A DNA stretch of 57,741 nucleotides from an uncultured Candidatus Saccharibacteria bacterium (GCA_964625245.1 CAZVAN010000001.1:1-57741); one strand, 5' to 3'. Shown: positions 1 to 36,721, counted from the first letter of the stretch. Numbers and translations: made by a program. Notes: generated from the letters alone by a model not told the origin.

Positions 1-232
<232 letters not shown>

Positions 233-7114: not shown

Positions 7115-7277
7115 TAAAAATCAACCCTCTCATAGGAACTTGTTTATCTGTTTCCACTCTGTTTTGATTATACCCGAATACCCCTTTTAAAACAACCTTT
7201 TTCGGTTGTAAAATTAGTCATATTCCTGCTAAAAATGTGCTGCAAAATTTGTTAAACGCGATACTAAAAATGGAAGT

Positions 7278-10154
7278 TTATTCAGCAGAGTTAAGGTCGG
7301 TATCGGGGTCAACGTGTAGTACACCGGAGTCGGCTGGGGCGGTAGTATCTTCGTCTCTGGGAATCTTAAATTCGTTTGAGTTAGCGGTAGTCGACGGCTG
7401 GATAAACTGGGACTCTGGTTTTGGCCGCTCAGTAGGATGCTGAATTGTCTGATGGCTACTTGAATTCAAAGACTGTGATGTAGAACCTCGGGCGGTCGGA
7501 CTAGGCGAGATTGGGACTGAGCCGCCAGGGTTATCCTTACGCTTTTGTAGCCACTCATCTAAGAAAGAAGAAGGGTTGGCGGGACGGTTAATCGGTTTGG
7601 GACTAGCCGGTTGATTTACGGCGGTTAGGGTGGAACTCGGTCTGGCTGGAGGTAAACCGTATTTATCAAAGACGTTAGGCCCGGCAGCTGACGGCAGGCT
7701 AGGTCTACTGGGAGCGGTAGTAGCCAACCGCTTCGCTATATCAGCTCCTACGGTGGCTTTAGGACGCCCATACTTAGCTGCTGAGAGTTGTTTAAGAGCA
7801 TCAGCCAATTGTTTATTGGGGCTGCCCAGCGGCGGTAATGTGGCCATACTAAATGGTTGTACTGGCACTCCTCCAATCATCATTTTGACAGCTGTGTTGG
7901 CATTGGGCAGGAACTGAAGATCGTCTATATCAAAGGTGGGAGTCATCACTTTAGTTAGTAGCTCGGCGTCACTAGTTCCCAGTCGGAAAGCTACAACTGT
8001 ACCAACGTTACCGAAAACAGCGTCCCTAATTTCTTCCGACAGCTGAGTGGTAAACTGATTGGCTACAATCAGATTTAAATGATATTTCCTGGCCTGGCTC
8101 AAGATGTCAGCGAAGGAATCAGTAGAGAAATTTTGAAACTCATCAACGTATAAACAGAAGTCTCGGCGGTACTCTTCGGGGGTATCTGCCCGGCTCATAG
8201 CTGCCGCCTCAAACTTCATAACAAAAATCATACCTAGTAATTTTGAGTTGAGGTCTCCGGTCCGCCCGCGGCTAAGATTAACTAGCAAGATTTTGCCGTC
8301 ATCCATAACCTCGCGAAGGTCAAAGCTGCTTTTGGCTTGGCCAATAATGTTACGCATCATCTCGTTACTCAAAAAAGCACCAAATTTACTTACAAACCAG
8401 CTGGTAACCTCACCAAATTCGTTGGAACGTTGCGAAGCCGGCATTTCCTTGCGCCAGAACTCTAACACGTTAGGATCTGTGACATATTGCAGTTTCTGCT
8501 CGACAAATGCCGGATCTCGGAACAGCTTGGGAATATCTACAAAAGTACCGCCGGCTGGGTCAGCCATAACTGCCAGAGCGGCGTTTCTGAACAAATGCTC
8601 GTAGCGCGGACCAATAATGCCTTGGTGTTGCGGATCGTATAGCTTGTATAGCATGTTTATAGACTCTTGGATTAAAAAGTCTTTTTGATCTTCGTTGTGA
8701 TACTCAAACATATTCAAGCCGAGCGGATAGTCCATATCGGCCGGGCTGAAGTAAATAACGTCTTCTGTGCGCTCTTTTGGTACCATTGCTAGCAGTTTTT
8801 CAGCCGTATCGCCATGTGGATCAACAAACGCAAAACCACGGCCTTCTAGCATGTCCTGAAGGGCCAAATTTTCTAAATAGGTAGATTTACCGGTTCCTGT
8901 CTGCCCGACAACGTACATATGCCGTGCTCGGTCCTGTTCGGCCAATCTGATAGCTTTTTTGGCACCACGGAACATGTTGTAACCCAAGAGAAGGCCTTGT
9001 TCCGGAACGTTACGCGGACCATCAACCTGTTTACTGGCCTGGCGTTCAAGCTGGGAAGTCGGTATATTTTGCTGATCTGGAAAGTGGAATAGAGTAGCAA
9101 TCTCGGTTACATTTAATATGTTTGCTGAGTTCTCTTGCGGAAAAAATCTTAAGATGTAAGCAGTTACGAAACTCTCAATGTCCTTAGCCGGCACAAACTT
9201 GAAGCCGTTTCGGCCTGGAGCATCAAACAGCGCAAAGGTAGCTATCATGGTATTAAGAACGGTTTGTGCCCGGTGTGAGATATTAGACGAGGCCACAACC
9301 CGAATCAAGACTTCGTAGCCTGGCTGTTTAGTTTTTTCTTCTATAGCTTGGATAATAGATTGATCGAGTGAAGAAATATCCTTGGGTTGCTCGTCCTTGT
9401 CCTTCGCGTCCGGTGGTTTGACCAGAGCCGCAAATATCTGGCCAATTGCGTTGAAGAAGCCCTCAACTCCTGCAGTTGATTTTTTGTCACCTCGCTTATT
9501 TTTGGCCTCAGTTATAGCTGCTTTACGCCAGCCTTCTGGAGCTGGACGTAGCAAGATTTGGATACCGGCACCATCTTCTTTGGTTAAAGTCGATAAAGAG
9601 TTGAGTAGCGACTGCATGGTATCGCGCTTTAAGTCCTCATAAGTGGCTATCGGGTAAGCGAACTTTTCCTTAAGGACTAGTTCCCCGCCCAGAGTACCGG
9701 TTATACGACCAACTGGACTAAAAATATTGTGTTCAGGGGACTCCTCTAGGCGAGCCGTCGGGTAAGCGCTGATAATTGCTTGCTCAACTATTCCCAGAAG
9801 AGGAACCGGCACGGCGGCGTAAAAATGGACTGCTCCTTTGATAGCTACTATTTCTAGGCCTATGTGCCGCTGACCATAAAACTTTGATTTAAAACCTTTC
9901 TGGAAAGTGCTAGCCAATATGCTATAGAGGGTTTGGGCCCTACTTATATTCTCGTTCATGACGTCACGGACATCTCGGCCATTAATGTCGGTGTCATCGC
10001 TTGGTGGAGGCAGATGGATAAGTAGCGGCACCATTTTTAAACCACGTTCGTAGTTTTTTTGTTCACGAAAAAGTTTACGGACATAGAGGTAGCCAAAAGC
10101 GCTGCCAGCTAGAACCATAACTAAAAACGAGATCAATACTACAAGCACCATCAT
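7278..10154 (-). CDS. Membrane-anchored P-loop ATPase of the VirD4/TraG/TraD coupling-protein type (FtsK-HerA superfamily)
   Basis: 958-aa ORF with an N-terminal TM helix, Walker A VVGQTGTGKST, and Walker B-like CLYVDEFQNF. The C-terminal ~200 aa are a Pro/Ser/Thr-rich low-complexity tail. Family assignment is from motif layout only. Confidence 0.65.
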   Translation of the reverse strand: MMVLVVLISFLVMVLAGSAFGYLYVRKLFREQKNYERGLKMVPLLIHLPPPSDDTDINGRDVRDVMNENISRAQTLYSILASTFQKGFKSKFYGQRHIGLEIVAIKGAVHFYAAVPVPLLGIVEQAIISAYPTARLEESPEHNIFSPVGRITGTLGGELVLKEKFAYPIATYEDLKRDTMQSLLNSLSTLTKEDGAGIQILLRPAPEGWRKAAITEAKNKRGDKKSTAGVEGFFNAIGQIFAALVKPPDAKDKDEQPKDISSLDQSIIQAIEEKTKQPGYEVLIRVVASSNISHRAQTVLNTMIATFALFDAPGRNGFKFVPAKDIESFVTAYILRFFPQENSANILNVTEIATLFHFPDQQNIPTSQLERQASKQVDGPRNVPEQGLLLGYNMFRGAKKAIRLAEQDRARHMYVVGQTGTGKSTYLENLALQDMLEGRGFAFVDPHGDTAEKLLAMVPKERTEDVIYFSPADMDYPLGLNMFEYHNEDQKDFLIQESINMLYKLYDPQHQGIIGPRYEHLFRNAALAVMADPAGGTFVDIPKLFRDPAFVEQKLQYVTDPNVLEFWRKEMPASQRSNEFGEVTSWFVSKFGAFLSNEMMRNIIGQAKSSFDLREVMDDGKILLVNLSRGRTGDLNSKLLGMIFVMKFEAAAMSRADTPEEYRRDFCLYVDEFQNFSTDSFADILSQARKYHLNLIVANQFTTQLSEEIRDAVFGNVGTVVAFRLGTSDAELLTKVMTPTFDIDDLQFLPNANTAVKMMIGGVPVQPFSMATLPPLGSPNKQLADALKQLSAAKYGRPKATVGADIAKRLATTAPSRPSLPSAAGPNVFDKYGLPPARPSSTLTAVNQPASPKPINRPANPSSFLDEWLQKRKDNPGGSVPISPSPTARGSTSQSLNSSSHQTIQHPTERPKPESQFIQPSTTANSNEFKIPRDEDTTAPADSGVLHVDPDTDLNSAE

Positions 10155-10600
10155 TTGATTACCGGATCGTCAGCCTTGATCGATTTGTTGAAACGCCGAT
10201 GAATGTACTCAGCTTTGACTTTGCTCATCTCATTTTTCTGTTCATATGGATCATCCTTAGTTCGTTCGATTACCGTCTTAGCCTTGTCGACCCATTCTTT
10301 TTCAATCCTATCTGTATCACTGGCTTGAGTCGAGACAACGCTTGTAGTCAAAGCCATGTCATCACCAGCTAAACCGCTAGCTATAGTCTGAGAAGGTAGA
10401 GCCATATCGGTGGCAACCTGACTGCTGACTACCGTGGATTGGGTTTGCGGACGATTTTCAGGAGACGCCGTAACGTTCTTCTCGACAGCATTATTTGCTG
10501 CCTGCTCACTGCTAGAAGTAGGGGGCGTCGCCTCAATCTGACGCTGGTTTTCACCCACATTAGGACTCATAGTCTTTATTATACTCGAGCTTTGATGCAA
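10151..10600 (-). CDS. Hypothetical protein, translationally coupled to the downstream ATPase
   Basis: 149-aa ORF whose stop overlaps the ATPase start (ATGA at 10151-10154). The N-half is Ser/Thr/Gln-rich and the C-half is charged and helical. No family recognised. Confidence 0.5.
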   Translation of the reverse strand: MHQSSSIIKTMSPNVGENQRQIEATPPTSSSEQAANNAVEKNVTASPENRPQTQSTVVSSQVATDMALPSQTIASGLAGDDMALTTSVVSTQASDTDRIEKEWVDKAKTVIERTKDDPYEQKNEMSKVKAEYIHRRFNKSIKADDPVIK

Positions 10601-10614
10601 TCAGGAGTCAAAAA

Positions 10615-10977
10615 TTAACGACGGTAGCTAAAGTAGAAAATTGAACCCGCGAATATAAGTGTTAATACCAAAACGTCTATCAAGTTCAGCGATCCAGTAC
10701 TTCTTAGCATAAAACATATGATTAAAAAGCTAACGCCTAAGATTATCCGCCGTTTAGCCTTAGAACTGGCTTCACCCCTTTGAAGAATTAGTAACGAACT
10801 AGTAAGAGTGGTCAGGAATACAAAGAGTAGTAAGAAGAATTGAATCGCCCAAACAGTGTTATTAATAGGATTTGTAAATAGAGTTAGAAAAATTATAAAA
10901 ACTAAGCTACTAGCCGAGATGGTAAGAGGTAGCTTAATTTTATGTTGATGAACGCCCATGCCCACAATTGTAAACAT
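10615..10977 (-). CDS. Small integral membrane protein
   Basis: 120-aa ORF made almost entirely of hydrophobic helices. An AAGGG ribosome-binding site sits ~5 nt upstream of the ATG. Confidence 0.55.
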   Translation of the reverse strand: MFTIVGMGVHQHKIKLPLTISASSLVFIIFLTLFTNPINNTVWAIQFFLLLFVFLTTLTSSLLILQRGEASSKAKRRIILGVSFLIICFMLRSTGSLNLIDVLVLTLIFAGSIFYFSYRR

Positions 10978-11970
10978 AATGCCCTTGGCGGTAAATGCGC
11001 TCAGATAAGTATTACTTTATAGCGCTTACCGCCTTCAGGCTTTGACTGACCGCTCTTCAAAGCGAAGAGCGATATCCACTGCGCCCCTCCCGTTTGTAGC
11101 GCTCGTTCGTAAGTTTTTTGTTTTTTACTTACACGATAATGCTAGCAAAAAAGTCTGCTTTAGTCAATGTTAATTAGTTATATTATTTACAATGATTATC
11201 TGTTAGTTATATAAATTTCTGTATTTTTGTTGTAAAGATTCCGTTGTAATTATATATATTACTGTCCGACAGTTTAGTGTTTAGTAGTCAGCAAAGCAGC
11301 TTTTTCATGTCCCCTTATTGCCATATTCTCAGTAGCTCGGTTAAGTTAGTTTTTACAATTCAAAGTGTTCGTAAACCTGAATCATACAGCCAATACGTAC
11401 TGCCAACATGGTCAAAAATTACTGACATATATGCGCTAGATGTATTCAGATTATTTAGGGTGCGGAAAGCGGCTCCAGCCAGTCATAGCCAAGTAACTTG
11501 TTTAAGTTCTCAATAGTAACGGGGCTTTCCTCTGTCAGAACTAGTGCTCCTAACAAGTTCAGGTGTTAATCCTCTCACGTCTAGCAGATTACTGTCTAAA
11601 TACCGATTTTAATTATTTCAGCGTCGGTAAACCCTGAATAGGTACCTCTCCCGAGCTCATAGAGCGTTTGGCAGTCAACGAACTCAATGCTTCTGGTCTG
11701 GCAGACCATTTTTCTTAAATTCTGCTACCACGCGTGAACCTCCTGGTCCTTCTGCGCGCGGATTTTTAGTAGGTTCGTCTGGTCTTTCATAACTAAATCT
11801 ACGTCCCGGCATAAAGACTTTAAGCATCATGGCGAAAGCTGCCTGCACGCGGTGTGTCCCGTCGGCAGTATTGGCGCAAGATGAGGTCTCAGGCATACTA
11901 TCCGACCTACTTAATGGAATTTGGTGTCGCTAGCCTCAAAAGTTATGCACAGGTTTTTAACATAATCGTA

Positions 11971-11999
11971 TTGACACTCAAAAACACAATTTATAAGAT
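11971..11999 (+). promoter_or_regulatory. Sigma-70-like promoter
   Basis: TTGACA (11971-11976), 17-nt spacer, TAAGAT (11994-11999). Confidence 0.45.
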
Positions 12000-12005
12000 G
12001 AGGAT

Positions 12006-12175
12006 GGCACTTGAATAAAAAAAGTGCTCAAAAACAAAAACGACTTGTAACAACGGCTTCTCGCAAGCCGTTGTTCCATCCAAAAACGAACGCCAAATAA
12101 AAACGTTTTAATAAACATTAAAAACCCAAACTTTCAAAAGACACCCGGCTAAACCAGCCGGGTGTTTAAATTTTA
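12006..12175 (+). ncRNA. Candidate small RNA (~170 nt), unassigned family
   Basis: Bounded by the promoter above and a strong intrinsic terminator (ACACCCGGCT-AAACC-AGCCGGGTGT plus a T-rich tail, 12141-12175). It contains hairpins GCACTT/AAGTGC, CAACGGCTT/AAGCCGTTG and AAAACG/CGTTTT separated by A/C-rich linkers. The only ATG ORF is 6 codons. Confidence 0.4.
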
Positions 12176-12328
12176 TGGACAACTAGAAGTATCCTCTCAA
12201 CGTTCATCAGCAAAGCCAACCGTAGCTTGCCAAGGCACACAACCTACCCTCTTTCCTGAAAAGTTCTAGAAGAATTATTAATCGAAAATAAGCTCCAGCA
12301 ATTTTGCTCCGCGTTTAAAAGTGTCATA

Positions 12329-13855
12329 ATGCAGGCCATTATGGGCGGCTCTGTAAAAAGCATTATGGACTATTCTGGTACTTCATCAGTTTTAGTCAGT
12401 GTCGAGTGTCATATTACTAACGGCTTACCAGCTGTGCTTATCATTGGTTACGCCGGTAAGGCCGTAGACGAAGCCAAGGAGCGCCTGCGAGCTAGTTTCG
12501 CTAACTCCTCCATCCAATTTCCAAAAAAACGCATAACCATCAACCTATCCCCAGCCGATTTGCCCAAGGATGCTACCAGTCTAGACTTAGCTATGGCTGT
12601 GGCTATTCTGTTGGAGAGCAAACAAATAGACCAAACGGGTGTGGACTGGGTATTTCTTGGTGAGCTGGCTCTAGATGGCTCCCTAAATCCAGTGCGCGGC
12701 TTGATTGGAAGGATCCTAGAAGCTAAGCAAGCTGGTATAAAAAAGTTTTATCTTCCGGCTAGTAATCTTGATCAGGCTTTACTAATTCCAGAAATATCCG
12801 TCAAAGCTGCCCGCAATCTTAAAGATGTTTATCTAGACCTGTCGGGTATCATGCCCCTCAAATGGATGGATAGTTTGGCTGGTAGTCTGAGTAAGCCCCG
12901 TGAGAATGAAATCACGATGGACTTCTCGGAGATTTCTGGACAACCAATTGCCAAGCGAGCCTTAGAAATAGCCGCCGCTGGGCACCACAACATTTTACTG
13001 CATGGACCTCCGGGAACCGGAAAAACCATGTTAGCCAAAGCTATGTGTGGCATATTACCAACCCTTCAACACAGTGAGGTATTAGAAGTTACTCATCTTC
13101 ATAGTCTAGCTAGCGGTGGGCAAGGTAATATTATCAGCCAGCGGCCGTTTAGATCACCCCATCATACAATAAGCACCACAGCACTGGTCGGCGGCGGTTC
13201 ACGACCTCGACCTGGCGAGGCCAGTTTGGCCCATCGGGGTGTCCTGTTTTTAGATGAATTGCCGGAATTTAGCCATTCTTCACTTGAAGCTCTAAGACAA
13301 CCCCTCGAGGACAGGTCGGTGACTATTGCCCGTGTCAAAGATTCTGCCACCTATCCGGCCGATTTCGTCCTTGTAGCTACCCAGAACCCCTGCCCCTGCG
13401 GATACTACGGAACCAATAAACCCTGTGTTTGCAGTGCCGCTTCTATAGCCAAATATCAAAAGAGGTTGTCCGGCCCTTTGCTAGATAGAATCGATCTTCA
13501 TCTGGCTGTCAACGATATTGACCATAGCCGCATATTAGAAAAACGAACAGTTGTTGAGGAGAGCAAGCTTATCAGGTCTCGAGTCAACAAGGCTTACTCT
13601 CGTCAAATAGAGCGTTTTAGCTCTGCCCGGTTCAATTCAAGCATGAACAATAGAGAAATAAGAGAATTAGCCGAACTCTCAGAGACTGCTAAGGCGCTCC
13701 TCGACCAAGCGGCTACTAAGTTGAGTATTTCAGCTCGGGCTTACATCCGTACGGTGAGAGTTGCCCGAACAATTGCTGATTTAGCGAACTCCGATTCCAT
13801 AGACACCGAACATATAAGCGAGGCTTTACAGTACCGTCAACAAATTTACGTCTGA
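12329..13855 (+). CDS. comM: ComM/YifB-family Mg-chelatase-like AAA+ ATPase
   Basis: 508-aa ORF with an N-terminal Lon-like domain, Walker A LHGPPGTGKTML, Walker B VLFLDELPEF, and a C-terminal helical domain. Several in-frame Met codons lie near the start. Confidence 0.9.
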   Translation: MQAIMGGSVKSIMDYSGTSSVLVSVECHITNGLPAVLIIGYAGKAVDEAKERLRASFANSSIQFPKKRITINLSPADLPKDATSLDLAMAVAILLESKQIDQTGVDWVFLGELALDGSLNPVRGLIGRILEAKQAGIKKFYLPASNLDQALLIPEISVKAARNLKDVYLDLSGIMPLKWMDSLAGSLSKPRENEITMDFSEISGQPIAKRALEIAAAGHHNILLHGPPGTGKTMLAKAMCGILPTLQHSEVLEVTHLHSLASGGQGNIISQRPFRSPHHTISTTALVGGGSRPRPGEASLAHRGVLFLDELPEFSHSSLEALRQPLEDRSVTIARVKDSATYPADFVLVATQNPCPCGYYGTNKPCVCSAASIAKYQKRLSGPLLDRIDLHLAVNDIDHSRILEKRTVVEESKLIRSRVNKAYSRQIERFSSARFNSSMNNREIRELAELSETAKALLDQAATKLSISARAYIRTVRVARTIADLANSDSIDTEHISEALQYRQQIYV

Positions 13856-15049: not shown

Positions 15050-15407
15050 AGCCCAGATTATCGGCTGATTGCCTGCTCTTTTAGTAGCAGGAGGAAAGTC
15101 CGGGCAGTATAGGGTAAAGGCAGTTGCTAACGGCAACCGGGGGTAACCCCAGGGAAAGTGCCACAGAAACGACACAACCATCCGCCGAGAAAGGCGGGTT
15201 GGAACTGGTGAAACGAGTGGGGTAAAAGCCCACAGTCCGTCTGGGTGACTTGGCGGAGAGGTAAACCCTGCCTACTGCAAGGAGATGTGTCGCAACAAGA
15301 GCTACCCGCTCGCGGCGCATCATAAGAACCGCTCGATCCTGCCGGCAACGGCAAGACTAGATAGATAATCAGCTAAAACAGAACCCGGCTTACGGATTTT
15401 CTGGGCT
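15050..15407 (+). ncRNA. rnpB: RNase P RNA (bacterial type)
   Basis: GAGGAAAGTCCGGGC at 15091-15105 and ACAGAACCCGGCTTAC at 15378-15393 (P4 strands). P1 pairs GCCCAGA (15051-15057) with TCTGGGC (15400-15406). An extended -10 TGCTATAAT sits at 15034-15042. Confidence 0.92.
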
Positions 15408-15427
15408 ACATGAAAAAACGCTTCTGC

Positions 15428-16369: not shown

Positions 16370-16390
16370 CGTCAGAACTGATTTCGACCC

Positions 16391-16430
16391 CATATAAAAA
16401 GCCCGGGGTTTAATCCGGGCTTTTTATATG
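16391..16430. terminator. Bidirectional intrinsic terminator
   Basis: Perfect palindrome CATATAAAAAGCCCGG-GGTTTAAT-CCGGGCTTTTTATATG. Confidence 0.7.
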
Positions 16431-16587
16431 GTCGGTGTCGAGCACTTAAATTTACCTCTGCAAGTTTTATGCAAAGTGGGTGCCCTCACAGCCGGACCAC
16501 GGTCCGAACTGCATAGTTGAGCTCCCTTATAAATTTTATTGAGAAAATTTAAACGTGCACTAACCGACCACTATCATTATACACCCG

Positions 16588-22207: not shown

Positions 22208-22284
22208 GGGCACATAGCTCAGCTGGCTAGAGCGCCACATTGACGTTGTGGATGTCGGGGGTTCAAATCCCTCTGTGCCCACCA
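22208..22284 (+). tRNA. tRNA-Val (anticodon GAC), CCA encoded
   Basis: Acceptor GGGCACA/TGTGCCC, D arm GCTC-AGCTGGCTA-GAGC, anticodon arm CCACA-TTGACGT-TGTGG, T arm GGGGG-TTCAAAT-CCCTC, 3' ACCA. Confidence 0.92.
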
Positions 22285-22316
22285 TATAAAAAACCTACTT
22301 TGTAGGTTTTTTATAT
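22285..22316. terminator. Bidirectional intrinsic terminator (shared by tRNA-Val and tgt)
   Basis: Palindrome ATATAAAAAACCTAC-TTT-GTAGGTTTTTTATAT. Confidence 0.7.
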
Positions 22317-22322
22317 GGCAGC

Positions 22323-28982: not shown

Positions 28983-29057
28983 GCCCCTGTAGTTCAATGG
29001 ATAAAATAGCTCCGTCCTAAGGAGAAGCTAGAGGTTCGAATCCTCTCGGGGGCACCA
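28983..29057 (+). tRNA. tRNA-Arg (anticodon CCT), CCA encoded
   Basis: Acceptor GCCCCTG/CGGGGGC, anticodon arm (G)CTCC-GTCCTAA-GGAG(A), T arm AGAGG-TTCGAAT-CCTCT, 3' ACCA. The D arm is atypical, so isotype confidence is moderate. Confidence 0.8.
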
Positions 29058-29564: not shown

Positions 29565-29659
29565 ATTGAGAATGATTATAACAGATAGAGGTGTTGATTC
29601 AAATTGAATAATATATGTGCTCACGGACTCGATTTTCTTTTCTCTGTTAGAATAGGCTA

Positions 29660-30577
29660 ATGAGCTACGAACAAGCCACTGCGGAATTTCTGGAATACCT
29701 AGAACTGGAGCAAAATCGCTCACCAAAGACCATACAAAATTATAGTCATTACCTTATCCGTCTTAGTGATTTTGCCGGTGATATAAAGGTAGAGGATATA
29801 AATCCGGAATTGATTAGAAAATGGCGTTTATGGCTAAACCGCCTGGGCACTAATACTAGCGATGAGCTTTCAAAGACCACACAAAACTACCACCTAATTG
29901 CGCTAAGAAGTTTCCTTAGATTTTGTATTAAGAGAGGTTACACTGCCCTACCCCCCGACCAGATAGAACTAGCACGGACTACCCGCCCCCAGGTGACTTT
30001 TTTAACGCCGGAGGAGCTTGAGCGCCTAGCTTCCCAGCCCAATACGTCCAACCCTACTGGTCTACGCGACCGGGCCATTATAGAACTTTTGTTTTCCAGC
30101 GGACTACGCGTTAGTGAGCTGGTGGGGCTAGATCGTGACCATATTAACCTGAAGCGACGCGAGTTTATGGTACGTGGCAAAGGCCAAAAAGATCGGCCGA
30201 TCTTTATCAGCGCCGAGGCAGCGGGTTGGATAGACCAGTATCTGCAAAAACGCCAAGACAATACCAAGCCCCTTTTTATTAGATACAGTGGGTCTAAAAA
30301 AGTAGATTTATCGGGTAATTTTCACCGTTTGACGGCCCGTAGCGTGCAGCGAATGGTGGCCAGATACGCTCGGCTAGCCGGAATTACCAAACACGTTAGC
30401 CCGCATACGCTGCGGCATTCTTTTGCGACGGACCTTTTGATGAACGGGGCTGACCTAAGGAGTGTGCAGGCCATGCTGGGCCATAGTAACATCGCTACCA
30501 CTCAAATTTATACTCATGTTACAGATCCCCACTTAAAAGCCGTTCATGAAAAGTTCCACCGAACAAAAAATAATTAA
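29660..30577 (+). CDS. Tyrosine recombinase, XerC/XerD family
   Basis: 305-aa ORF with an N-terminal SAM-like core-binding domain, catalytic R...HxLRH (SPHTLRHSFAT) ...GH, and the Tyr in TTQIYTHV. Confidence 0.85.
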   Translation: MSYEQATAEFLEYLELEQNRSPKTIQNYSHYLIRLSDFAGDIKVEDINPELIRKWRLWLNRLGTNTSDELSKTTQNYHLIALRSFLRFCIKRGYTALPPDQIELARTTRPQVTFLTPEELERLASQPNTSNPTGLRDRAIIELLFSSGLRVSELVGLDRDHINLKRREFMVRGKGQKDRPIFISAEAAGWIDQYLQKRQDNTKPLFIRYSGSKKVDLSGNFHRLTARSVQRMVARYARLAGITKHVSPHTLRHSFATDLLMNGADLRSVQAMLGHSNIATTQIYTHVTDPHLKAVHEKFHRTKNN

Positions 30578-30698
30578 ATAAGCCAAAAACATAACTAATT
30601 TTATTTGACTGTCAGCCGTTATAGAATTTGCTGTAGCGATTCTTCCCTCGCAAAAGCTTTAGCTAGTACCCCAACAACCAGGAAAGGTGGGTGGATCA

Positions 30699-31769
30699 AT
30701 GTTCGGCAAGACCAAGCTGCAAACATGGGCAGCTTTGGGCGGCTGTGTCTGCGCCGCCACCGGGTTTGGAGCCCAGAATTCCAAGAGTGCCCCGGCCAAC
30801 GAATCAGGAGCGACAACCAGCTGTTCCGATTACAACTTGATCGACGTACACGGTTCAGGTGCAGCCTCGTACACCGAAAGTCCGGCCGGGAGCGTCCTGG
30901 CAGAGCAGCTCCAGATGAGTTTGTCGCCGAAGCAAGTGGAGGTGGATACCGTCCCGTTTGAAGCGGCCGGTGGCCCAATTACCCTGGCGGGAGCGGCTTT
31001 GAAGTTGCCGCGCGGCTACCACCAGTCAGTAGTGAAAATCAAGAACTGGCTGCGGGAATGGCTTCAGGCTCTACCCGGGGACTGCCCGAACGCCAAGGTC
31101 ATCCTGGTCGGCTACAGCCAGGGGGCACAGGCGGTAGGCGACGTCTATCAGGAGCGAGCTTGGAAGCAAGTGGTCGGGGTTGTATTGTTCGGAGACCCCT
31201 ACTACAACCACGCTGACAGTTCAGACCGCTTCGGGCTCAACTTCCAGCCGAAGCAGAGGATCAAGACCAAGCTGGACGGAGCCCTGGTGGGGCGCAAACC
31301 AAGGGATGCCTTCAACAGCTCCCTGGTGCAGAGCTACTGCCACCAAGAGGACTTCGTATGCCAGGCTCCCCTGAGCAAGTACGAGCTGGTTCGATACGGC
31401 AAGAGCCAGCACAACAACTACACCGGGTTCGGGGAGCCGGAGAAGGCGGCCAAGTACCTGATGGGCCTAATTGGTTCAAGCGGCAGCCCAAAACCGTCGC
31501 CCAAACCACTGGGCAAATGGCCCACCAACCGTCACGATGGCCCACCGGCTCTCTTCTTGATGCTGGGAGCCAACTTCATCAGTCCAGATTGGTCGAGCTG
31601 TGACCCGGCTTACTGCATCGTTGGGTCCGATAACACGGTCTACGTGTTTTCGGTCGACCAGGGCATCAACGAAAAGGGGACAATCCCTCTTGGGTACACA
31701 GACCCCGCGGAGGGACTGGGGGAACTAAAAGTTCCAAAACCGGACATCGACAAGCTGCTGGCTCCGTGA
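30699..31769 (+). CDS. Cutinase-family serine esterase, predicted lipoprotein, high-GC (foreign composition)
   Basis: The ATG at 30699 follows AGGAAAGGTGGG. The signal peptide has lipobox LGGC. Cutinase nucleophile motif GYSQGAQ is present. G/C-ending codons run throughout, with shadow ORFs on both strands. Confidence 0.75.
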   Translation: MFGKTKLQTWAALGGCVCAATGFGAQNSKSAPANESGATTSCSDYNLIDVHGSGAASYTESPAGSVLAEQLQMSLSPKQVEVDTVPFEAAGGPITLAGAALKLPRGYHQSVVKIKNWLREWLQALPGDCPNAKVILVGYSQGAQAVGDVYQERAWKQVVGVVLFGDPYYNHADSSDRFGLNFQPKQRIKTKLDGALVGRKPRDAFNSSLVQSYCHQEDFVCQAPLSKYELVRYGKSQHNNYTGFGEPEKAAKYLMGLIGSSGSPKPSPKPLGKWPTNRHDGPPALFLMLGANFISPDWSSCDPAYCIVGSDNTVYVFSVDQGINEKGTIPLGYTDPAEGLGELKVPKPDIDKLLAP

Positions 31770-31780
31770 AGAAGCAAGAC

Positions 31781-31814
31781 GCCCGGGTGAGCGGATTTTC
31801 ACGCTCACCCGGGC
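31781..31814 (+). terminator. GC-rich stem-loop without U-tail (foreign-style terminator)
   Basis: 13-bp stem GCCCGGGTGAGCG/CGCTCACCCGGGC with an 8-nt loop. Confidence 0.5.
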
Positions 31815-31833
31815 TAGGCGAAGGAAGAATTGT

Positions 31834-31862
31834 AAGACCCCGCTCGTGGGTCTTTTAATTTT
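31834..31862 (+). terminator. Native-style intrinsic terminator
   Basis: AAGACCC-CGCTCGT-GGGTCTT followed by TTAATTTT. Confidence 0.55.
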
Positions 31863-31896
31863 AACCTTGGGGTGTAATAATTAAGCGTAAGAAGTT

Positions 31897-32553
31897 ATGA
31901 AAAAGACTCAAAGAGGGTTTGGAGATATAAAGCTAATAGGAATCGGTGTATTGATTCTAGTGCTAATCGTTGCTGGCGGATATGCTTACCATAGACGTAG
32001 TGGTTCTTCTTCTAATTCTAATACGAGCATCTCGGTGGGTTGGTCTCTGTACAAAAGCGATAAGTATGGGTTTGAGTTTAGTTATCCTAATGATTGGGGT
32101 GGCCCGACTACGACAGAGGTAAGTAATTCAGCAAGTAAGCAGTATGTGGTTGCCTTCCCCACCGATTCAACAAAATCGATAAAAATTGAGATGGACTCTG
32201 GTCTATCCAACAATAAGGATTGCGACCCGGGCAAGGGATGTACAACAGGTGAGGTAAGCAAAGCTTATATAGAAAGTAGGCTGAAGAATGATAAATCCGA
32301 CTTGGCTGCTAGTGATACGACTTCGTTTGCTAACGTTGTTAGTGTTCCCAAACAAGTAAGCGGATTGAGCGTTTATAGGATAGTGAGTGTTCCAAAGATT
32401 AAGACTGATGCTGCTAGGTTAAGCTATGTAGTTACCAGCGCAGGCGTTAGCTGCCCTCAAAACGGCTTTGCCCCAACTAGCACTGAAGGCTGTGTTACAA
32501 AGGATACATATGTTGTGGCCGATCAAGTTATAAAGAGCCTGCAATCACTTTAA
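31897..32553 (+). CDS. Membrane-anchored hypothetical protein (native composition)
   Basis: 218-aa ORF with one N-terminal TM helix and then a YKSDKYGFEFSYPNDWGG-type extracytoplasmic domain. Low GC, like the bulk genome. Confidence 0.55.
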   Translation: MKKTQRGFGDIKLIGIGVLILVLIVAGGYAYHRRSGSSSNSNTSISVGWSLYKSDKYGFEFSYPNDWGGPTTTEVSNSASKQYVVAFPTDSTKSIKIEMDSGLSNNKDCDPGKGCTTGEVSKAYIESRLKNDKSDLAASDTTSFANVVSVPKQVSGLSVYRIVSVPKIKTDAARLSYVVTSAGVSCPQNGFAPTSTEGCVTKDTYVVADQVIKSLQSL

Positions 32554-32682
32554 GTTCTACTTATTTTAATAAGCTCTAGCATTTTACTTATTAGCTAAAA
32601 TATTCTAGGATAGGTTTATGATCTCTTTTGATCCAAGGTCTAAGTAAACCAGCTCCTCTCATACGTAGTTCAAGAAAGGTAG

Positions 32683-33681
32683 GTGATTCCCGTGAAGGGG
32701 ATCCGTATCACCGCGTGCCTCGTGGCACTGGTGCTCTCGTGCCTCGTCGTCGCTTCGGTGACGGCATCCGCGCACGCAATCACCAAGAACGACCCACCGG
32801 TTGTCCGGTACAGCGATGGGTCCCTGACCCTCGATGGCCAGCCCTACTTCCCAATCATGGCTCTGATCACTCGCTGCCCAAGTAGCGACGTGATCAATCA
32901 GATGGTCAAGGTGGGCGTCAACACCGTCGACGGCTATGCCCTCAGCTGTGGTACCGGCAAGGGTACGCAAGAGTTCGTCGACAAGCTTCACACCGCTCTT
33001 CAAGACCGCGTGAAGTGGATGGAGCATGACACGAGCGTCGGCTACTGGCCGACGGGACTTCCCGAGCTGACGAAGTGGCTGGCTCCCATCCAATGGGACA
33101 CCCACGACGGCCAGCAGCTCAAGTCGTGCAGTGACCACTCAGCAGTCTCGGTCTACACGGGAGTCAACAACCTCAGCAAGAGGGGGCCGGTGATCCTGCG
33201 AATTCCGATCGCTGTCGCTGGCGGTCTCGACGGCCAGGACGTCAATTGCCTGACCGGAGCCCGTGTCTCGGCTCTCCTCTGGGGAGCCGTGGCAACCACG
33301 AAGCTCGTTGGTATCGAGTACCTCGCACAGGACAAGGGACAAGATGCCCCGCTGTTCGACGTTCCGACCAGCGTGCAGGCGCAGGCACCGAAGGATGCAG
33401 CCCTGCTCAAGCTGATCCTGCCGGCGATGGAGAACGGCACCGTTGTCACATCGCAAGTCAACGTGACCGGCGGCGTGAAGGTCGGAGCTTGGAAGTACAA
33501 CGGCTCGACCGTCATCGTGGCCGTGAACATGGTCGACACACCGGCTTCTGCAAGCTTCACACTGCCAAGCTCACTGAAGAACGTTCGCGTTCTGAAGGAG
33601 ACCAGCGGGGTGAAGATCAGCGGCCGGAAGTTCACCGACCATTTCCCTGGGCTGAGCAAGCACATCTACGTGGTGCAGTAA
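32683..33681 (+). CDS. Secreted protein, possibly glycoside-hydrolase-like, high-GC (foreign composition)
   Basis: 332-aa ORF with a GTG start after GAAAGGTAGG and signal peptide ...LVVASVTASAHA. The LTLDGQPYFPIMAL segment is reminiscent of TIM-barrel glycosidases (weak). Strong GC3 bias. Confidence 0.6.
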   Translation: MIPVKGIRITACLVALVLSCLVVASVTASAHAITKNDPPVVRYSDGSLTLDGQPYFPIMALITRCPSSDVINQMVKVGVNTVDGYALSCGTGKGTQEFVDKLHTALQDRVKWMEHDTSVGYWPTGLPELTKWLAPIQWDTHDGQQLKSCSDHSAVSVYTGVNNLSKRGPVILRIPIAVAGGLDGQDVNCLTGARVSALLWGAVATTKLVGIEYLAQDKGQDAPLFDVPTSVQAQAPKDAALLKLILPAMENGTVVTSQVNVTGGVKVGAWKYNGSTVIVAVNMVDTPASASFTLPSSLKNVRVLKETSGVKISGRKFTDHFPGLSKHIYVVQ

Positions 33682-33714
33682 GACGCAAGGGGGCCTTCGG
33701 GCCCCCAACCGTCT
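33681..33714 (+). terminator. GC-rich stem-loop without U-tail (foreign-style terminator)
   Basis: AGACG-CAA-GGGGGCC-TTCG-GGCCCCC-AAC-CGTCT. Confidence 0.5.
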
Positions 33715-33749
33715 TTCTAGAAAAGAGGAGTTGAATCAGGAGATCTTAC

Positions 33750-33777
33750 AGAGCCCGCAAGGGCTCTTTCTCTTTTT
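33750..33777 (+). terminator. Native-style intrinsic terminator
   Basis: AGAGCCC-GCAA-GGGCTCT followed by TTCTCTTTTT. Confidence 0.6.
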
Positions 33778-33778
33778 A

Positions 33779-36721
33779 TTAGGGCAATCTAGAATCGTCG
33801 AATTCGTTAACATAGGGATTTGTACATGTAAGGAAGAACCCTGGACTCCATGCCCCTACCCACCCAGTACCACTCCCCCATGAACCACTCAAGCCAGTTC
33901 GGAAATTAGAACCATATTGGGTATCCACGTGACAGCTTGTCGAACCAGAATCATCAACACCGCCGCCGGAAACAGATATAGAATAGCTTCCATCTCCACC
34001 ACACACTATCCATCGGTGGATGCCATCTGCACAGGGACCGGGGTTATAGGTAGCGCTGTTTCTGCAATACCATAAGTTATAATATCCTGTGCTTGAAGGA
34101 CATTGATTGGGTCCTTCATCCCAAATTGCTCCTCTATTGAAGGAGTTTTCCCGAATGGGTGGATGTATGGTGAAACATTGACTGGCGCCTGCGAGGAAAC
34201 CCCACGGATCAGCGCCGGAAGAAAACTGTACGCAGTAATTACCTACTCCTAAACCAACCGACCCACTGCTGCCTACCCAGCCTCCTGAACCAATTGACCC
34301 ACAATTAACCCCCGAGCAGTCGTGAAGGAGGTAGTAACCTCTGCCGGAGTTAGCGGGTGGACAAGAACCAGACCAACTAAAGCCACCTGATCCGTTACGG
34401 TTGTCATACGCAGATACGTTTGCGCTACAAGATGCATTGCCATTTTGTCCTGGGGCGTAGGGGGTAGCACACGCCTGATTACTGGCCAAAGCCCCCCAAG
34501 GTGTAAGGCTATCCGTTAAGGTCAAGCAGAACTGGCTGGTTCTAAGTCCAGGAGTTGTACCACTTCCGGTTCGGCTCGTAGAACTGAAGCCACCATCGGT
34601 ACTGCTTGTAACGCTGTAGGTACCAAGATTAACGTTACCAAGAGCTGGACAAGCACCGGACCAGGAGTAATTAACAGCAGCATCCTGATTGTCACTAGCG
34701 CTTACGCTAGCAGTGCAAGCAGGAGGCAGGATGGGACGAGGCCCTCCTCTGCTAAAGACAATTGTTTGTGGTCCCGAAGAGCGGCCTATTGGATCAAAAC
34801 ATTCTACTGTGAACGTTTTGGTTGAATCATCTTGAGGACCAATGCTCATGGTTTGATTCTGAGTAGCTATTGGAGCGCCGCTGGGGTTATTGTAGCTGGT
34901 AGTTGAGGTCCAGTTGCCGGTTAGGTCGCAGCGGCTGGCATTATTAGCCGACCAGCTAACAACATAAGGTGCGTCGGCAGAAATAGATGCCGGGCCGGAT
35001 ATTGAAGCTGCTGGTGTTGGCCAGGCAGTGACAGTTTGAGTACCACCGGCGTTATTGATGGTGGAATAAGGCGTATTACCACCACCTACCCTGCTACAAA
35101 GCATGCTGAAGCTTGTAACGCTTGAGATAGGACCAAAAGTTTGAGGACGACCGGTGCCATTAAGTGCTGGATTTCCAGTAAAGTCCATGACCGTAGTTTT
35201 ATCGGGCGGGCTGGCCCATCCAGGCATACCGCCGCTGGCCGTGCAAGAGGTAGCATCGGCGGTTGTCCATTTAAGGGTGACGTTATTGCCACTATCTATG
35301 TAGGTTGTGCCCTTGTGGGTGGCATCCGGGGTGGATTCGTTATAGTGCTTAGCCGTTCCATTGTTGGCTATAGCCGGGAAGAGAGGGGTCTCGTTGGCTG
35401 GGCCGGTGTTACCAGTAATGGTCAGATCCAGAGATGGAACGGGGTCGGATACGCAACCACTGCCAGCGCAGGCGCCGGCATCGTGACAAACGTTGGGAGG
35501 AGTATCAAAACTGACGTAGCTATAGAAGCTAACAGTCTGGACAACGCGCTTACAGAGCGCGTTGGCCGTACGGACTGATTGTTCTGGAATGGAATCACTA
35601 CTTGAGGAAATATTGGTATCTATGCCGCCACCTGTGGATGACAAGCTGCTGGTGTCTACCCTGGCCTGCAGGCGCTTGGCAACGCCACCTGATTGGGCAG
35701 TGGCGTCAATCACAGCCTGAACATTTATAAACTTAAGGGTTTGCGTCCATATGTCATTGGCCCGTATTTTTACATCAGCCTGGTTATAAATTGGCGTGAC
35801 TTTCATATATACATAATCCAGGGTGTTGGGAGATATTGAAGTGCTAAGGTCTTTAATAATCAGATTACAGGTGTAATCAGACTTGTTATTAGGCACACCG
35901 TTGAAATCAACCACTCCAGACGTAGTCCCAACCGTAGTTGTACAGCTAACCGGCAAAACGCTGCCGTCCGCAAGTGACGCGTAGGACGGGTGCGGTATGG
36001 TCCCGCTACCGCCACTGTTTTGGGGGTATAGAAACAACGTTTTAGAATTAGCCTGGAGATTTGTTAGGTCGCCGGTGGTAGGGATTGGATAAATACTGAC
36101 TCTTAACATTGGTATGAAGTTGTTGGCAGAGGAAGTCCAGCTAGTGATGTCAGTAAAGCTAGGGCTGTTGGGCGGATAGCCGGTGACGCTGGGGTTGCTA
36201 GGTTGCCAGGAGAGCATGAGTTTATCAAAAGAACCGCTGAAGGCCGAGGTAGTAACTTTCACCACCTGCGACTTATTAGAACTAATCTGCTGATAAGCCA
36301 AATCTGTTGGAGTAGGATCAAGTATTAGACAGGTGTAGTGAGTCGAGGCCGGGTTATCTTTAGCCAAGTTTGAGTCGTTATAAAATGGACCGGGTGTTTG
36401 GGCGTTGCCTATAAGGGTACTGGCGCCGTTACAGTTTGCAGAGCTGGCATACGGATGTAACAGCGCTCCGGTTGCCGGATCTTTTTGTCTTAAATAGCCC
36501 GCCACGTCATTAATGGCTGATTGGGTGGCATAAGTAGCCGCAGCACTAAATTGGCGATTGGTGGCATTGCTCAATGTGCGGCTCATTAGACGGGCGAAGC
36601 CAATACTTATAAGTGTTACCACTATAACAAGAATGGATACAACAACTATTGACGCCATACCCTCCTGAGACTTGCGGTGCATATGCCCAATTTTACTACG
36701 CTTGAACTTAAAATACACCAC
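33779..36721 (-). CDS. Large PilX-like pilus-associated protein / putative tip adhesin
   Basis: 980-aa ORF. N-terminus QEGMASIVVVSILVIVVTLISIGFARLM resembles the PilX N-terminal helix. The remainder is Ser/Thr/Gly/Cys-rich with repeated C..SA.DN......SWSG.CP modules. It is the last gene of the pilin block. Confidence 0.55.
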   Translation of the reverse strand: MVYFKFKRSKIGHMHRKSQEGMASIVVVSILVIVVTLISIGFARLMSRTLSNATNRQFSAAATYATQSAINDVAGYLRQKDPATGALLHPYASSANCNGASTLIGNAQTPGPFYNDSNLAKDNPASTHYTCLILDPTPTDLAYQQISSNKSQVVKVTTSAFSGSFDKLMLSWQPSNPSVTGYPPNSPSFTDITSWTSSANNFIPMLRVSIYPIPTTGDLTNLQANSKTLFLYPQNSGGSGTIPHPSYASLADGSVLPVSCTTTVGTTSGVVDFNGVPNNKSDYTCNLIIKDLSTSISPNTLDYVYMKVTPIYNQADVKIRANDIWTQTLKFINVQAVIDATAQSGGVAKRLQARVDTSSLSSTGGGIDTNISSSSDSIPEQSVRTANALCKRVVQTVSFYSYVSFDTPPNVCHDAGACAGSGCVSDPVPSLDLTITGNTGPANETPLFPAIANNGTAKHYNESTPDATHKGTTYIDSGNNVTLKWTTADATSCTASGGMPGWASPPDKTTVMDFTGNPALNGTGRPQTFGPISSVTSFSMLCSRVGGGNTPYSTINNAGGTQTVTAWPTPAASISGPASISADAPYVVSWSANNASRCDLTGNWTSTTSYNNPSGAPIATQNQTMSIGPQDDSTKTFTVECFDPIGRSSGPQTIVFSRGGPRPILPPACTASVSASDNQDAAVNYSWSGACPALGNVNLGTYSVTSSTDGGFSSTSRTGSGTTPGLRTSQFCLTLTDSLTPWGALASNQACATPYAPGQNGNASCSANVSAYDNRNGSGGFSWSGSCPPANSGRGYYLLHDCSGVNCGSIGSGGWVGSSGSVGLGVGNYCVQFSSGADPWGFLAGASQCFTIHPPIRENSFNRGAIWDEGPNQCPSSTGYYNLWYCRNSATYNPGPCADGIHRWIVCGGDGSYSISVSGGGVDDSGSTSCHVDTQYGSNFRTGLSGSWGSGTGWVGAWSPGFFLTCTNPYVNEFDDSRLP

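Follow-up and report, generated by a model that had tools for sequence, protein, structure and literature searches.

A stretch of 57,741 nucleotides from an uncultured Candidatus Saccharibacteria bacterium (GCA_964625245.1 CAZVAN010000001.1:1-57741), hereafter called the window, holds two GC-rich genes on either side of an AT-rich one: gene A, which codes for a predicted esterase of the cutinase family, the middle gene, and gene B, which codes for a predicted secreted protein. The three genes lie between xer, the gene of a tyrosine recombinase, and the last gene of a type IV pilus cluster. This place is a conserved hot spot of GC-rich genes for secreted proteins beside pilus genes, whose composition has persisted across the divergence of species. 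We consider it probable that the three genes form an ancient and conserved module of secreted proteins, foreign in origin, in which GC richness has been maintained, and that they are not the product of recent transfer. An initial annotation of the window had described recent, independent single-gene inserts from an Actinobacteria host. Its assignment of the genome to Saccharibacteria (Saccharimonadales) is confirmed by matches of the xer/ndk locus in metagenome-assembled genomes (MAGs).

Composition and Integrity of the Region

The window has an overall GC content of ~0.46. In 200-nt windows, GC is ~0.37-0.46 before the rise, 0.57-0.61 over 30.7-31.8 kb, 0.36-0.46 in the stretch between the two GC-rich genes, and 0.59-0.64 over 32.7-33.7 kb. 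The biggest steps lie near 30645, 31851, 32689, and 33712, so that the four abrupt shifts initially described correspond to sharp boundaries. GC content at third codon positions (GC3) has a mean of 0.472 (SD 0.071) among the 48 non-overlapping open reading frames (ORFs) of the window. Gene A (0.723) and gene B (0.784) are the sole outliers beyond 2 SD in this set, in line with the G/C-ending codons noted earlier, and the middle gene, at 0.379, does have native composition. Of the two hand counts given in the initial annotation, the one for 33241-33300 (40/60 G+C) is exact and the one for 32281-32340 should read 25/60, not 26/60. Shadow ORFs are indeed dense on both strands across the GC-rich genes, and they led gene callers astray in two ENA assemblies. 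In these (L001 11961-12983 and L002 4916-5938, corresponding to window 32659-33734), gene B is annotated as two shadow ORFs, one of 159 aa on the minus strand and one of 163 aa on the plus strand. The real gene B protein is absent from both records, and its 90% cluster contains a fragment (P0045).

An assembly chimera, in which GC-rich pieces from another organism were joined into a Saccharibacteria contig, has nothing in its favour except the composition itself. Contigs of three further ENA assemblies equal the window at 99.9-100% identity; one short contig (L003) crosses both junctions of the first insert and another, also short (L004), both junctions of the second. The same pattern is seen in over 15 further contigs, obtained in different studies and with different assemblers, one of them of 733 kb. 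Because all four junctions are spanned in four independent assemblies, that of the window included, a chimera is excluded for practical purposes.

Conservation of the Module among Saccharibacteria

The full order, i.e., xer, cutinase gene, middle gene, gene B, and the pilus gene on the opposite strand, is found in the window, L005, L089, and L168/L169. Counted by species, it recurs in at least four besides that of the window, and partial forms recur in about ten more. Among the partial forms, L020, L172, and L175 lack only the cutinase gene, in L085 the cutinase gene and the middle gene are accompanied by a GC-rich secreted gene of another kind, and L088 has the cutinase gene with two paralogues of the middle gene. 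The cutinase gene also directly follows xer in L090, L093, L095 (the 733-kb contig), L096, L103, and L111. In every such locus the cutinase gene and gene B have a GC3 of 0.60-0.82, the flanks have a GC of 0.41-0.55, and the middle gene is rich in AT. L086 and L087 have cutinase homologues (57-58% identity) elsewhere on low-GC contigs, where they too are GC islands. Hence, the two GC-rich genes, initially taken for independent single-gene inserts, both belong to one conserved three-gene module, and its recurrence at the same site in related genomes argues against recent insertion.

The site is not restricted to these two families. Among 1064 ORFs in 80 MAG loci, six are strong GC3 outliers, four of them directly downstream of xer, all with signal peptides. 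Two further GC-rich secreted families (GC3 0.68-0.81, ~300-340 aa), unrelated to cutinase or gene B, occupy the xer-to-pilus site in other species. One has members at L085 3026-4015, L011 7062-8009, and L006 10976-11935, and the other at L103 7380-8369, L111 11891-12919, and L096 11433-12326.

Age of the GC-Rich Genes

At four-fold degenerate sites, xer is 22-40% identical between species, where 25-28% is expected from composition alone. In the closest pair, L005 and L168, four-fold identity is 0.40 for gene B, 0.40 for xer, 0.44 for ndk, and 0.41 for the 980-aa pilus gene; between the window and L085 it is 0.38 for the cutinase gene and 0.39 for xer. Because the four-fold divergence of the GC-rich genes equals that of the flanking native genes, the former are as old as the species splits. 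The correlation between the pairwise identities of gene B and of xer is not significant, most pairs being saturated, and the closest pairs alone are informative. The claim of recency thus fails: the module stands at the same site in many Saccharibacteria species, is GC-rich throughout, and is as diverged as its native neighbours. There is one departure from this pattern. The L005 cutinase is only 41% identical to the L168 cutinase and is nearer (50-54%) to genes on high-GC contigs, which indicates that it is a later replacement.

Homologues and Possible Origin

Where context was inspected, the closest cutinase homologues share 48-61% identity and come from low-GC contigs of Saccharibacteria or of a Saccharibacteria-like kind; the GC anomaly is present in them too. 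The top match (P0002, 69%) is on a 2.1-kb contig, outside the contexts inspected. Homologues on high-GC contigs are more distant (33-44%). Uniformly high-GC contigs carry cutinase homologues in L091/L092, L094, L097, and L170, and a gene B homologue in L174. Most cutinase matches in the metagenome scan are on contigs of 0.59-0.77 GC, the gene matching its surroundings, and a crude neighbour-joining tree of cutinases interleaves high-GC and low-GC contexts. Because both families are also present on uniformly high-GC contigs, an origin from high-GC bacteria is likely; that the donor was an Actinobacteria host is a hypothesis. The description of the genes as Actinobacteria-like and foreign therefore holds for their composition and for the existence of family members on high-GC contigs, and fails for the closest inspected homologues, which are of Saccharibacteria type and of low GC. 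Homologues from the candidate phyla radiation (CPR) as closest relatives, which the initial annotation had named as evidence against an Actinobacteria donor, are largely what was found, and there is no named Actinobacteria protein among 43 matches.

The only close cutinase homologue with a named organism, P0010 (HVO86628.1), is labelled Candidatus Binatia. Its 90% cluster holds the L089 copy (7151-8176; a JGI member), whose neighbours are 70-88% identical to Saccharibacteria genes, and the label probably comes from a mis-binned contig. One metagenome, Ga0265338 (L092, L093, L095, L096, L097, L099, L103, L111), contains both Saccharibacteria contigs with a cutinase gene after xer and high-GC contigs with native-looking homologues, so that possible donors and recipients share a habitat. 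L170, a 120-kb contig of 0.64 GC, has two tandem cutinase-family genes (10001-12881) with, nearby, an ABC transporter carrying two FHA domains, which we take to be typical of Actinobacteria.

Signals at the Ends of the GC-Rich Genes

Upstream of each GC-rich gene is a promoter-like, AT-rich stretch holding a TATAAT-type box, which is conserved, and a GAAAGGTGG-type Shine-Dalgarno sequence. In the leader of gene A the conserved box is TATA(G/A)AAT-like and lies near 30620-30627; the Shine-Dalgarno sequence, AGGAAAGGTGG, follows near 30681-30691. This promoter is a prediction from conservation, and the consensus scan did not call it. The leader of gene B has a box of the TATTCTAGGAT/TATTATAA type, and its Shine-Dalgarno sequence, GAAAGGTAGGTGATTCC, is extended. 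The coordinates of these and other features are collected in Table 1.

Table 1. Features of the xer-to-pilus site of the window and its surroundings
Feature	Position	Strand	Remarks
tRNA-Arg(CCT)	28983-29057		1.6 kb from the first insert; ndk and xer intervene
Housekeeping XerC/D-type tyrosine recombinase (xer)	29660-30577	+	Left border of the variable site; Pfam, NCBIfam, synteny
Predicted AT-rich promoter and leader of gene A	30578-30698	+	14-species upstream alignment
Left inverted-repeat arm, ATTCTTCCCTCGC	30639-30651	+	At or just past the predicted transcription start
Gene A, predicted lipoprotein-type secreted cutinase-family serine esterase, 356 aa	30699-31769	+	GC 0.59, GC3 0.723
GC-rich perfect hairpin, 13-bp stem, 8-nt loop, no U-tail	31781-31814	+	11 nt after the gene A stop
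Right inverted-repeat arm, GCGAAGGAAGAAT, with conserved AGGAAGAAT(C/T)G motif	31818-31830	+	Between GC hairpin and terminator
Native-type intrinsic terminator, GACCCC...GGGTC and T-tract	31834-31864	+	
Middle gene, N-terminally anchored PsbP-like protein, 218 aa	31897-32553	+	PF18933 PsbP_2; native to AT-rich
Predicted AT-rich promoter and leader of gene B	32554-32691	+	8-species alignment
Gene B, predicted secreted protein of an uncharacterised family, 329 aa	32692-33681	+	GC 0.61, GC3 0.784
GC-rich hairpin right after the gene B stop, no U-tail	33682-33713	+	Core GGGGGCC-TTCG-GGCCCCC at 33689-33706
Native-type terminator shared with the convergent 980-aa gene	33750-33777	+	
980-aa protein with pilin-like hydrophobic N-terminus, last gene of the type IV pilus cluster	33779-36721	-	Right border of the site

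At the other end, both pairs of a GC-rich stem-loop without U-tail and a following native terminator were found as initially reported, the terminators with T-tails being called at 31834-31854 and 33750-33767. The hairpin after gene A, whose stem is 85% GC, is the sole long GC-rich perfect hairpin in the window, and in each of the 13 species examined the cutinase gene is followed by a hairpin of 12-17 bp with a differing sequence. After gene B, the window has only a 7-bp core, and the gene B homologues of L005, L020, L089, L168, L172, and L175 have GC hairpins of 12-18 bp in the same place. The hairpins after the GC-rich genes start ~10 nt past the stop and keep their structure among species while their sequence differs. 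In 16 loci, the folding energy of the 55 nt past the stop has a median of -27.5 kcal/mol in GC-rich genes vs. -8.3 in the others (p = 2e-11).

The cutinase genes are moreover framed by an inverted repeat. Duplex-energy z-scores of long 5' and 3' windows are uninformative, as the GC hairpin dominates them, and were replaced by an ungapped scan for inverted repeats around all genes. Among the 218 genes scanned, six of the eight longest upstream/downstream matches (13-16 nt) frame cutinase genes, and these vary in sequence among species while complementarity is kept. In the window, the two arms pair at 12 of 13 positions; in other species the position of the left arm differs in sequence yet complements the 3' arm of the same gene. 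A motif at the beginning of the leader, read on the opposite strand, gives AGGAAGAAT(C/T)G. Counts of AGGAAGAATCGA within the window alone show no excess over chance, and the signal lies in position and cross-species conservation. The 5' arm looks like the 3' tail of 16S rRNA, and the 3' arm like a ribosome-binding (Shine-Dalgarno) site. The two ends of the mRNA may thus pair, for stability or for gating of translation; alternatively, the repeat could act at the DNA level. In the leader of gene B there is a weak left arm near 32617-32630 (GATCTC core), and its inverted repeat is tentative. Both the conserved 3' GC hairpin common to the GC-rich genes and the co-varying inverted repeat framing the cutinases are new here.

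The Cutinase-Family Esterase

Gene A matches PF01083 with 74.5 bits (cut-off 25.9) over residues 45-242. Its putative catalytic residues S140, D218, and H238, as well as the C214/C221 pair, are invariant in an alignment of 20 homologues; S140 lies in the GYSQG motif and D218 between the two cysteines. The initial assignment to the cutinase family on the basis of GYSQG is thereby upheld, and so is the secretion of both GC-rich genes, through a lipobox-like L-x-G-C motif at the N-terminus of gene A and a signal peptide in gene B. Of the 20 homologues, 19 also have a conserved C-terminal domain of ~110 aa (KWPT..DG...W..C..YC.VG) that belongs to no known family. The frame opens back to GTG 30687; ATG 30699 suits the Shine-Dalgarno spacing and equals the start of the deposited protein P0001. 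The cutinases begin alike (MFG..KL..AL.GC.CAA), in a way that resembles the start of the gene B family.

Among solved structures, fungal cutinases come nearest (E = 2e-7), and GYSQGA aligns with the nucleophile motif of the Humicola cutinase 4oyy. Phage lysin B is itself a cutinase-fold enzyme. Gene A matches the phage lysis family PHROG 102 with E = 4e-14, and the sole tblastn match among 50,697 phage records is the lysin B of Gordonia phage Camerico, which is marginal (E = 8e-4, 29% coverage); the relation to actinophage lysin B appears to be at the family level only. A mycobacterial Culp6-type carboxylesterase (NF050160) was considered and rejected, at 21 bits for a cut-off of 570.

The Middle Gene and Gene B

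The match of the middle gene to PF18933 PsbP_2 is weak (E = 3.9e-6, 27.4 bits vs. a cut-off of 27). Orthologues with 25-41% identity occupy the same position in L005, L020, L085, L088, L089, L168, L172, and L175.

Gene B has no sequence match in Pfam, NCBIfam, or the PDB. It first appeared to be an orphan, since a word-index search found only the protein itself, or five proteins when run with a profile; this was rejected by an exhaustive profile search, which gave a family of 99 representatives at E < 1e-30. Within the family, conservation of four cysteines reaches 97-98%. The AlphaFold2 model, built from a 60-sequence alignment (pLDDT 88, pTM 0.85), shows a reduced (beta/alpha)-barrel with a C-terminal beta-sandwich, and all 50 Foldseek matches listed are glycoside hydrolases, with best TM-scores of 0.54-0.58 (GH140, GH5-like). 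Among 60 members, the position of E114 is D or E in 62% and that of E128 in 78%. The initial suggestion of a glycosidase is therefore supported by the predicted fold and not by the conservation of a catalytic carboxylate pair; because such a pair is not evident, we call the modelled protein glycosidase-like and not a glycosidase. The frame opens back to GTG 32683, and the N-termini of the family and the position of the Shine-Dalgarno sequence favour GTG 32692. The most conserved part of the family (P0057-P0125) is the signal peptide (window 32692-32780), with the pattern ..R..AL..LCLVVA(S/T)(V/A)TAQA; the mature proteins are only ~30% identical.

Neighbourhood of the Module

Xer has the Pfam Phage_integrase and SAM-like domains and scores ~257 bits with the NCBIfam XerC/XerD models. 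It is 77-88% identical, and always beside ndk, in 80 Saccharibacteria/Saccharimonadales MAG loci, most of them without insert. Because it is conserved and syntenic beside ndk in these MAGs, it is the housekeeping enzyme and not the integrase of an island. A homologue of the 980-aa gene directly follows xer in most of the 80 loci, which makes the space occupied by the three genes (30.7-33.7 kb) a variable site between two conserved blocks. The pilus cluster extends over 36.7-50.8 kb and includes N_methyl pilins, PilD (Peptidase_A24), PilC (T2SSF), and PilT and PilB (T2SSE).

A role of Xer or tRNA-Arg in insertion, as the initial annotation had it, finds no support, as xer is conserved with or without inserts. 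The inserts are not beside the tRNA gene, which lies past ndk and xer and is no insertion site. No att-type direct repeats were found at the module junctions, and the 200 nt downstream of xer hold no dif-like or otherwise conserved site, the best 9-mer being present in 8 of 99 loci. Three classes of mobile unit were rejected: Xer-dependent modules (IMEX/pdif), for which the 200-nt flanks after xer would have to have a motif in common; a tRNA-linked integrase island, given that Xer is present in at least 80 species mostly without inserts, that the tRNA gene lies 1.6 kb away, and that direct repeats are missing at the junctions; and integron cassettes, integron-integrase models scoring 137 bits for a cut-off of 265 and 85 bits for one of 435.

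In the spacer between ndk and xer (equivalent to window 29565-29659), a motif containing ATTGTACGACA lies upstream of xer in ~40 of 99 loci, and TATAACAGATA-type words, at ~29577-29587 in the window, occur in ~22-24 of the 99. The motif may serve as a shared divergent promoter or as a site for a recombinase. Elsewhere in the window, two 17-bp perfect hairpins (16390-16431 and 22282-22318) have the outer arms CCATATAAAAA...TTTTTATATGG in common, one lying ~20 nt past tRNA-Pro and the other overlapping the last bases of tRNA-Val; this pair looks like a repeated terminator-like element. The window starts within a 16S rRNA gene (1-232, minus strand; first 146 model positions) and contains a complete bacterial class A RNase P RNA (15053-15408).

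Discussion

The history that best fits these observations is as follows. One subclade of Saccharimonadales carries, between xer and the distal end of the pilus cluster, a module for an esterase, a PsbP-like anchored protein, and a glycoside hydrolase-like protein. Its GC-rich genes most likely came from high-GC bacteria. They were in place before the sampled species split, with at least one later replacement, that of the L005 cutinase. They are domesticated, each having an AT-rich promoter, a Shine-Dalgarno sequence, and a terminator of native type, and their ends have features in common, i.e., the GC hairpin after each stop and, in the cutinase genes, a leader start co-varying with the pre-terminator segment that it complements. 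GC richness and these end features would be maintained by selection, e.g., for stable or translationally gated mRNA, or by repeated replacement with GC-rich homologues. Gene A would be a surface-tethered lipoprotein esterase hydrolysing ester-linked lipids of the host envelope, gene B would bind or cleave wall polysaccharide, and both would act at the host contact made by the pili. As the genes for an esterase and a glycan-directed protein adjoin the pilus cluster, the two may help to open the envelope of the host or to harvest it. In a cultivated Saccharibacterium, attachment to the mycolic-acid layer of the host, Gordonia, is reported to depend on type IV pili (PMC11880426), and cutinase-fold enzymes include the mycobacterial mycolate hydrolase Rv3451 (PMC10115798). 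No paper linking cutinases to the biology of Saccharibacteria was found in the literature.

Cultivated Saccharibacteria are naturally competent epibionts of Actinobacteria, and recent, independent single-gene transfers from such a host, not yet ameliorated, would produce high GC3 values with sharp boundaries, 3' hairpins without U-tails (common in high-GC bacteria), and homologues on high-GC contigs. Such transfers are nevertheless very improbable, as the same genes, site, and anomaly are found in many species with a synonymous divergence equal to that of flanking genes, the closest inspected homologues lie on Saccharibacteria-type contigs, neither the list of 43 matches nor the Culp6 model points to Actinobacteria, and the promoters, Shine-Dalgarno sequences, and terminators are native in type. 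The sister relation of L005 and L168, which all other genes fit and the L005 cutinase does not, would agree with recurrent replacement in place, lineage by lineage, by GC-rich homologues from high-GC neighbours or hosts, without selection on composition. The interleaved tree, the different GC-rich families found at the site in different species, and the IS200-type Y1 transposase adjoining these genes in L015, L086, and L093 are consistent with such replacement as a general explanation; it is made rather unlikely by the synonymous divergence of gene B (L005-L168) and of the cutinase gene (window-L085), which matches that of the neighbours as under vertical descent, by the lack of repeats or attachment sites for precise swapping at the junctions, and by the lack of a Y1 transposase in the window. 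Finally, the families may be native to Saccharibacteria, with a GC richness that is adaptive or due to bias, the copies on high-GC contigs being exports. Eight of nine inspected members of the gene B family are at the Saccharibacteria xer site, the LCLVVA..TAQA signal sequence is conserved across this family, and L086 has a paralogue of native composition. Cutinases are however widespread outside CPR, mostly on high-GC contigs whose composition they share in the metagenome scan, and a GC3 of 0.8 in a 46% GC genome is without known native cause, so that native families are quite unlikely.

An ancient foreign module with maintained GC richness remains the preferred explanation. Under neutral amelioration, we infer that ~1/3 of the ancestral GC3 excess should survive per lineage, and the excess of gene B in the window (0.31) would then need an impossible ancestral GC3. 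Several points weigh against this explanation. The four-fold identities behind the amelioration argument are noisy and near saturation, and its model is simple. In the neighbour-joining tree a high-GC clade nests inside the Saccharibacteria cutinases, leaving some directions of transfer open, and the neighbours on high-GC contigs are only IS3/IS256 transposases and one ADOP permease, which give no taxon signal. The inverted repeat of gene B is just 10-11 nt, near background, in the window too. The barrel of gene B has no invariant acidic residue and no clear catalytic carboxylate pair among 60 members, and the protein may be a non-enzyme.

A bolder version, in which genes for host attack are deliberately kept GC-rich, with a 3' hairpin and an mRNA end clamp, for stability or for translation of complete transcripts only, is a speculative possibility that we think more doubtful than likely by a wide measure. 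If true, maintained GC richness would contradict the rule by which an atypical GC content is read as a sign of recent transfer. The persistent anomaly and the co-varying ends point to a composition-maintaining force outside current models of amelioration, and the case cautions that recent transfer can be called in error when GC is the basis. An esterase and a wall-glycan-type protein encoded beside pilus genes are also concrete candidates for envelope attack or scavenging by CPR epibionts.

Comparison with Known Systems

The PF01083/CE5 family includes fungal cutinases, mycobacterial Culp proteins (such as the trehalose dimycolate hydrolase Rv3451), and actinophage lysin B. Gene A resembles them in its score above threshold, GYSQG motif, Cys-flanked Asp, His, and secretion signal. 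It differs in having at most ~34% identity to solved or named members, over part of the domain, and in adding a lipobox-type signal and the conserved C-terminal domain. Gene B has the architecture of glycoside hydrolases with a (beta/alpha)8-barrel and a C-terminal beta-sandwich (GH140, GH5-like, GH13, GH29, GH30), and in its relatives the sandwich gives weak amylase-C-type Pfam matches. Unlike these enzymes, it has a shortened barrel, low TM-scores, and no sequence similarity to solved structures.

Base-pairing between 5' and 3' untranslated regions is known in bacterial mRNA (icaR of Staphylococcus aureus), as are stabilising 3' hairpins and REP elements. The complementarity of the cutinase leader and the pre-terminator segment, with arms that resemble the 16S tail and a Shine-Dalgarno sequence, recalls icaR, and the strong GC hairpin after the stop of GC-rich genes recalls the 3' hairpins and REP elements; unlike these cases, the architecture described here is known from DNA sequence alone. 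With respect to integron attC sites, the 3' hairpins form perfect GC palindromes, and those of the two cassettes of the window differ in sequence. With respect to IS200/IS605 elements, Y1 (HUH) transposase genes (Y1_Tnp), of native composition, lie beside xer or GC-rich genes at L086 5978-6595, L093 11174-11932, and L015 4423-5103, the one of L086 being framed by a 25-nt inverted repeat.

The module is like compositional genomic islands in its sharp GC and GC3 anomaly, its secreted accessory functions, and its variable site between conserved genes. It differs from them in having no island integrase, tRNA insertion site, or flanking direct repeats. Unlike the islands that amelioration predicts, its anomaly is common to orthologues whose synonymous divergence is near saturation.

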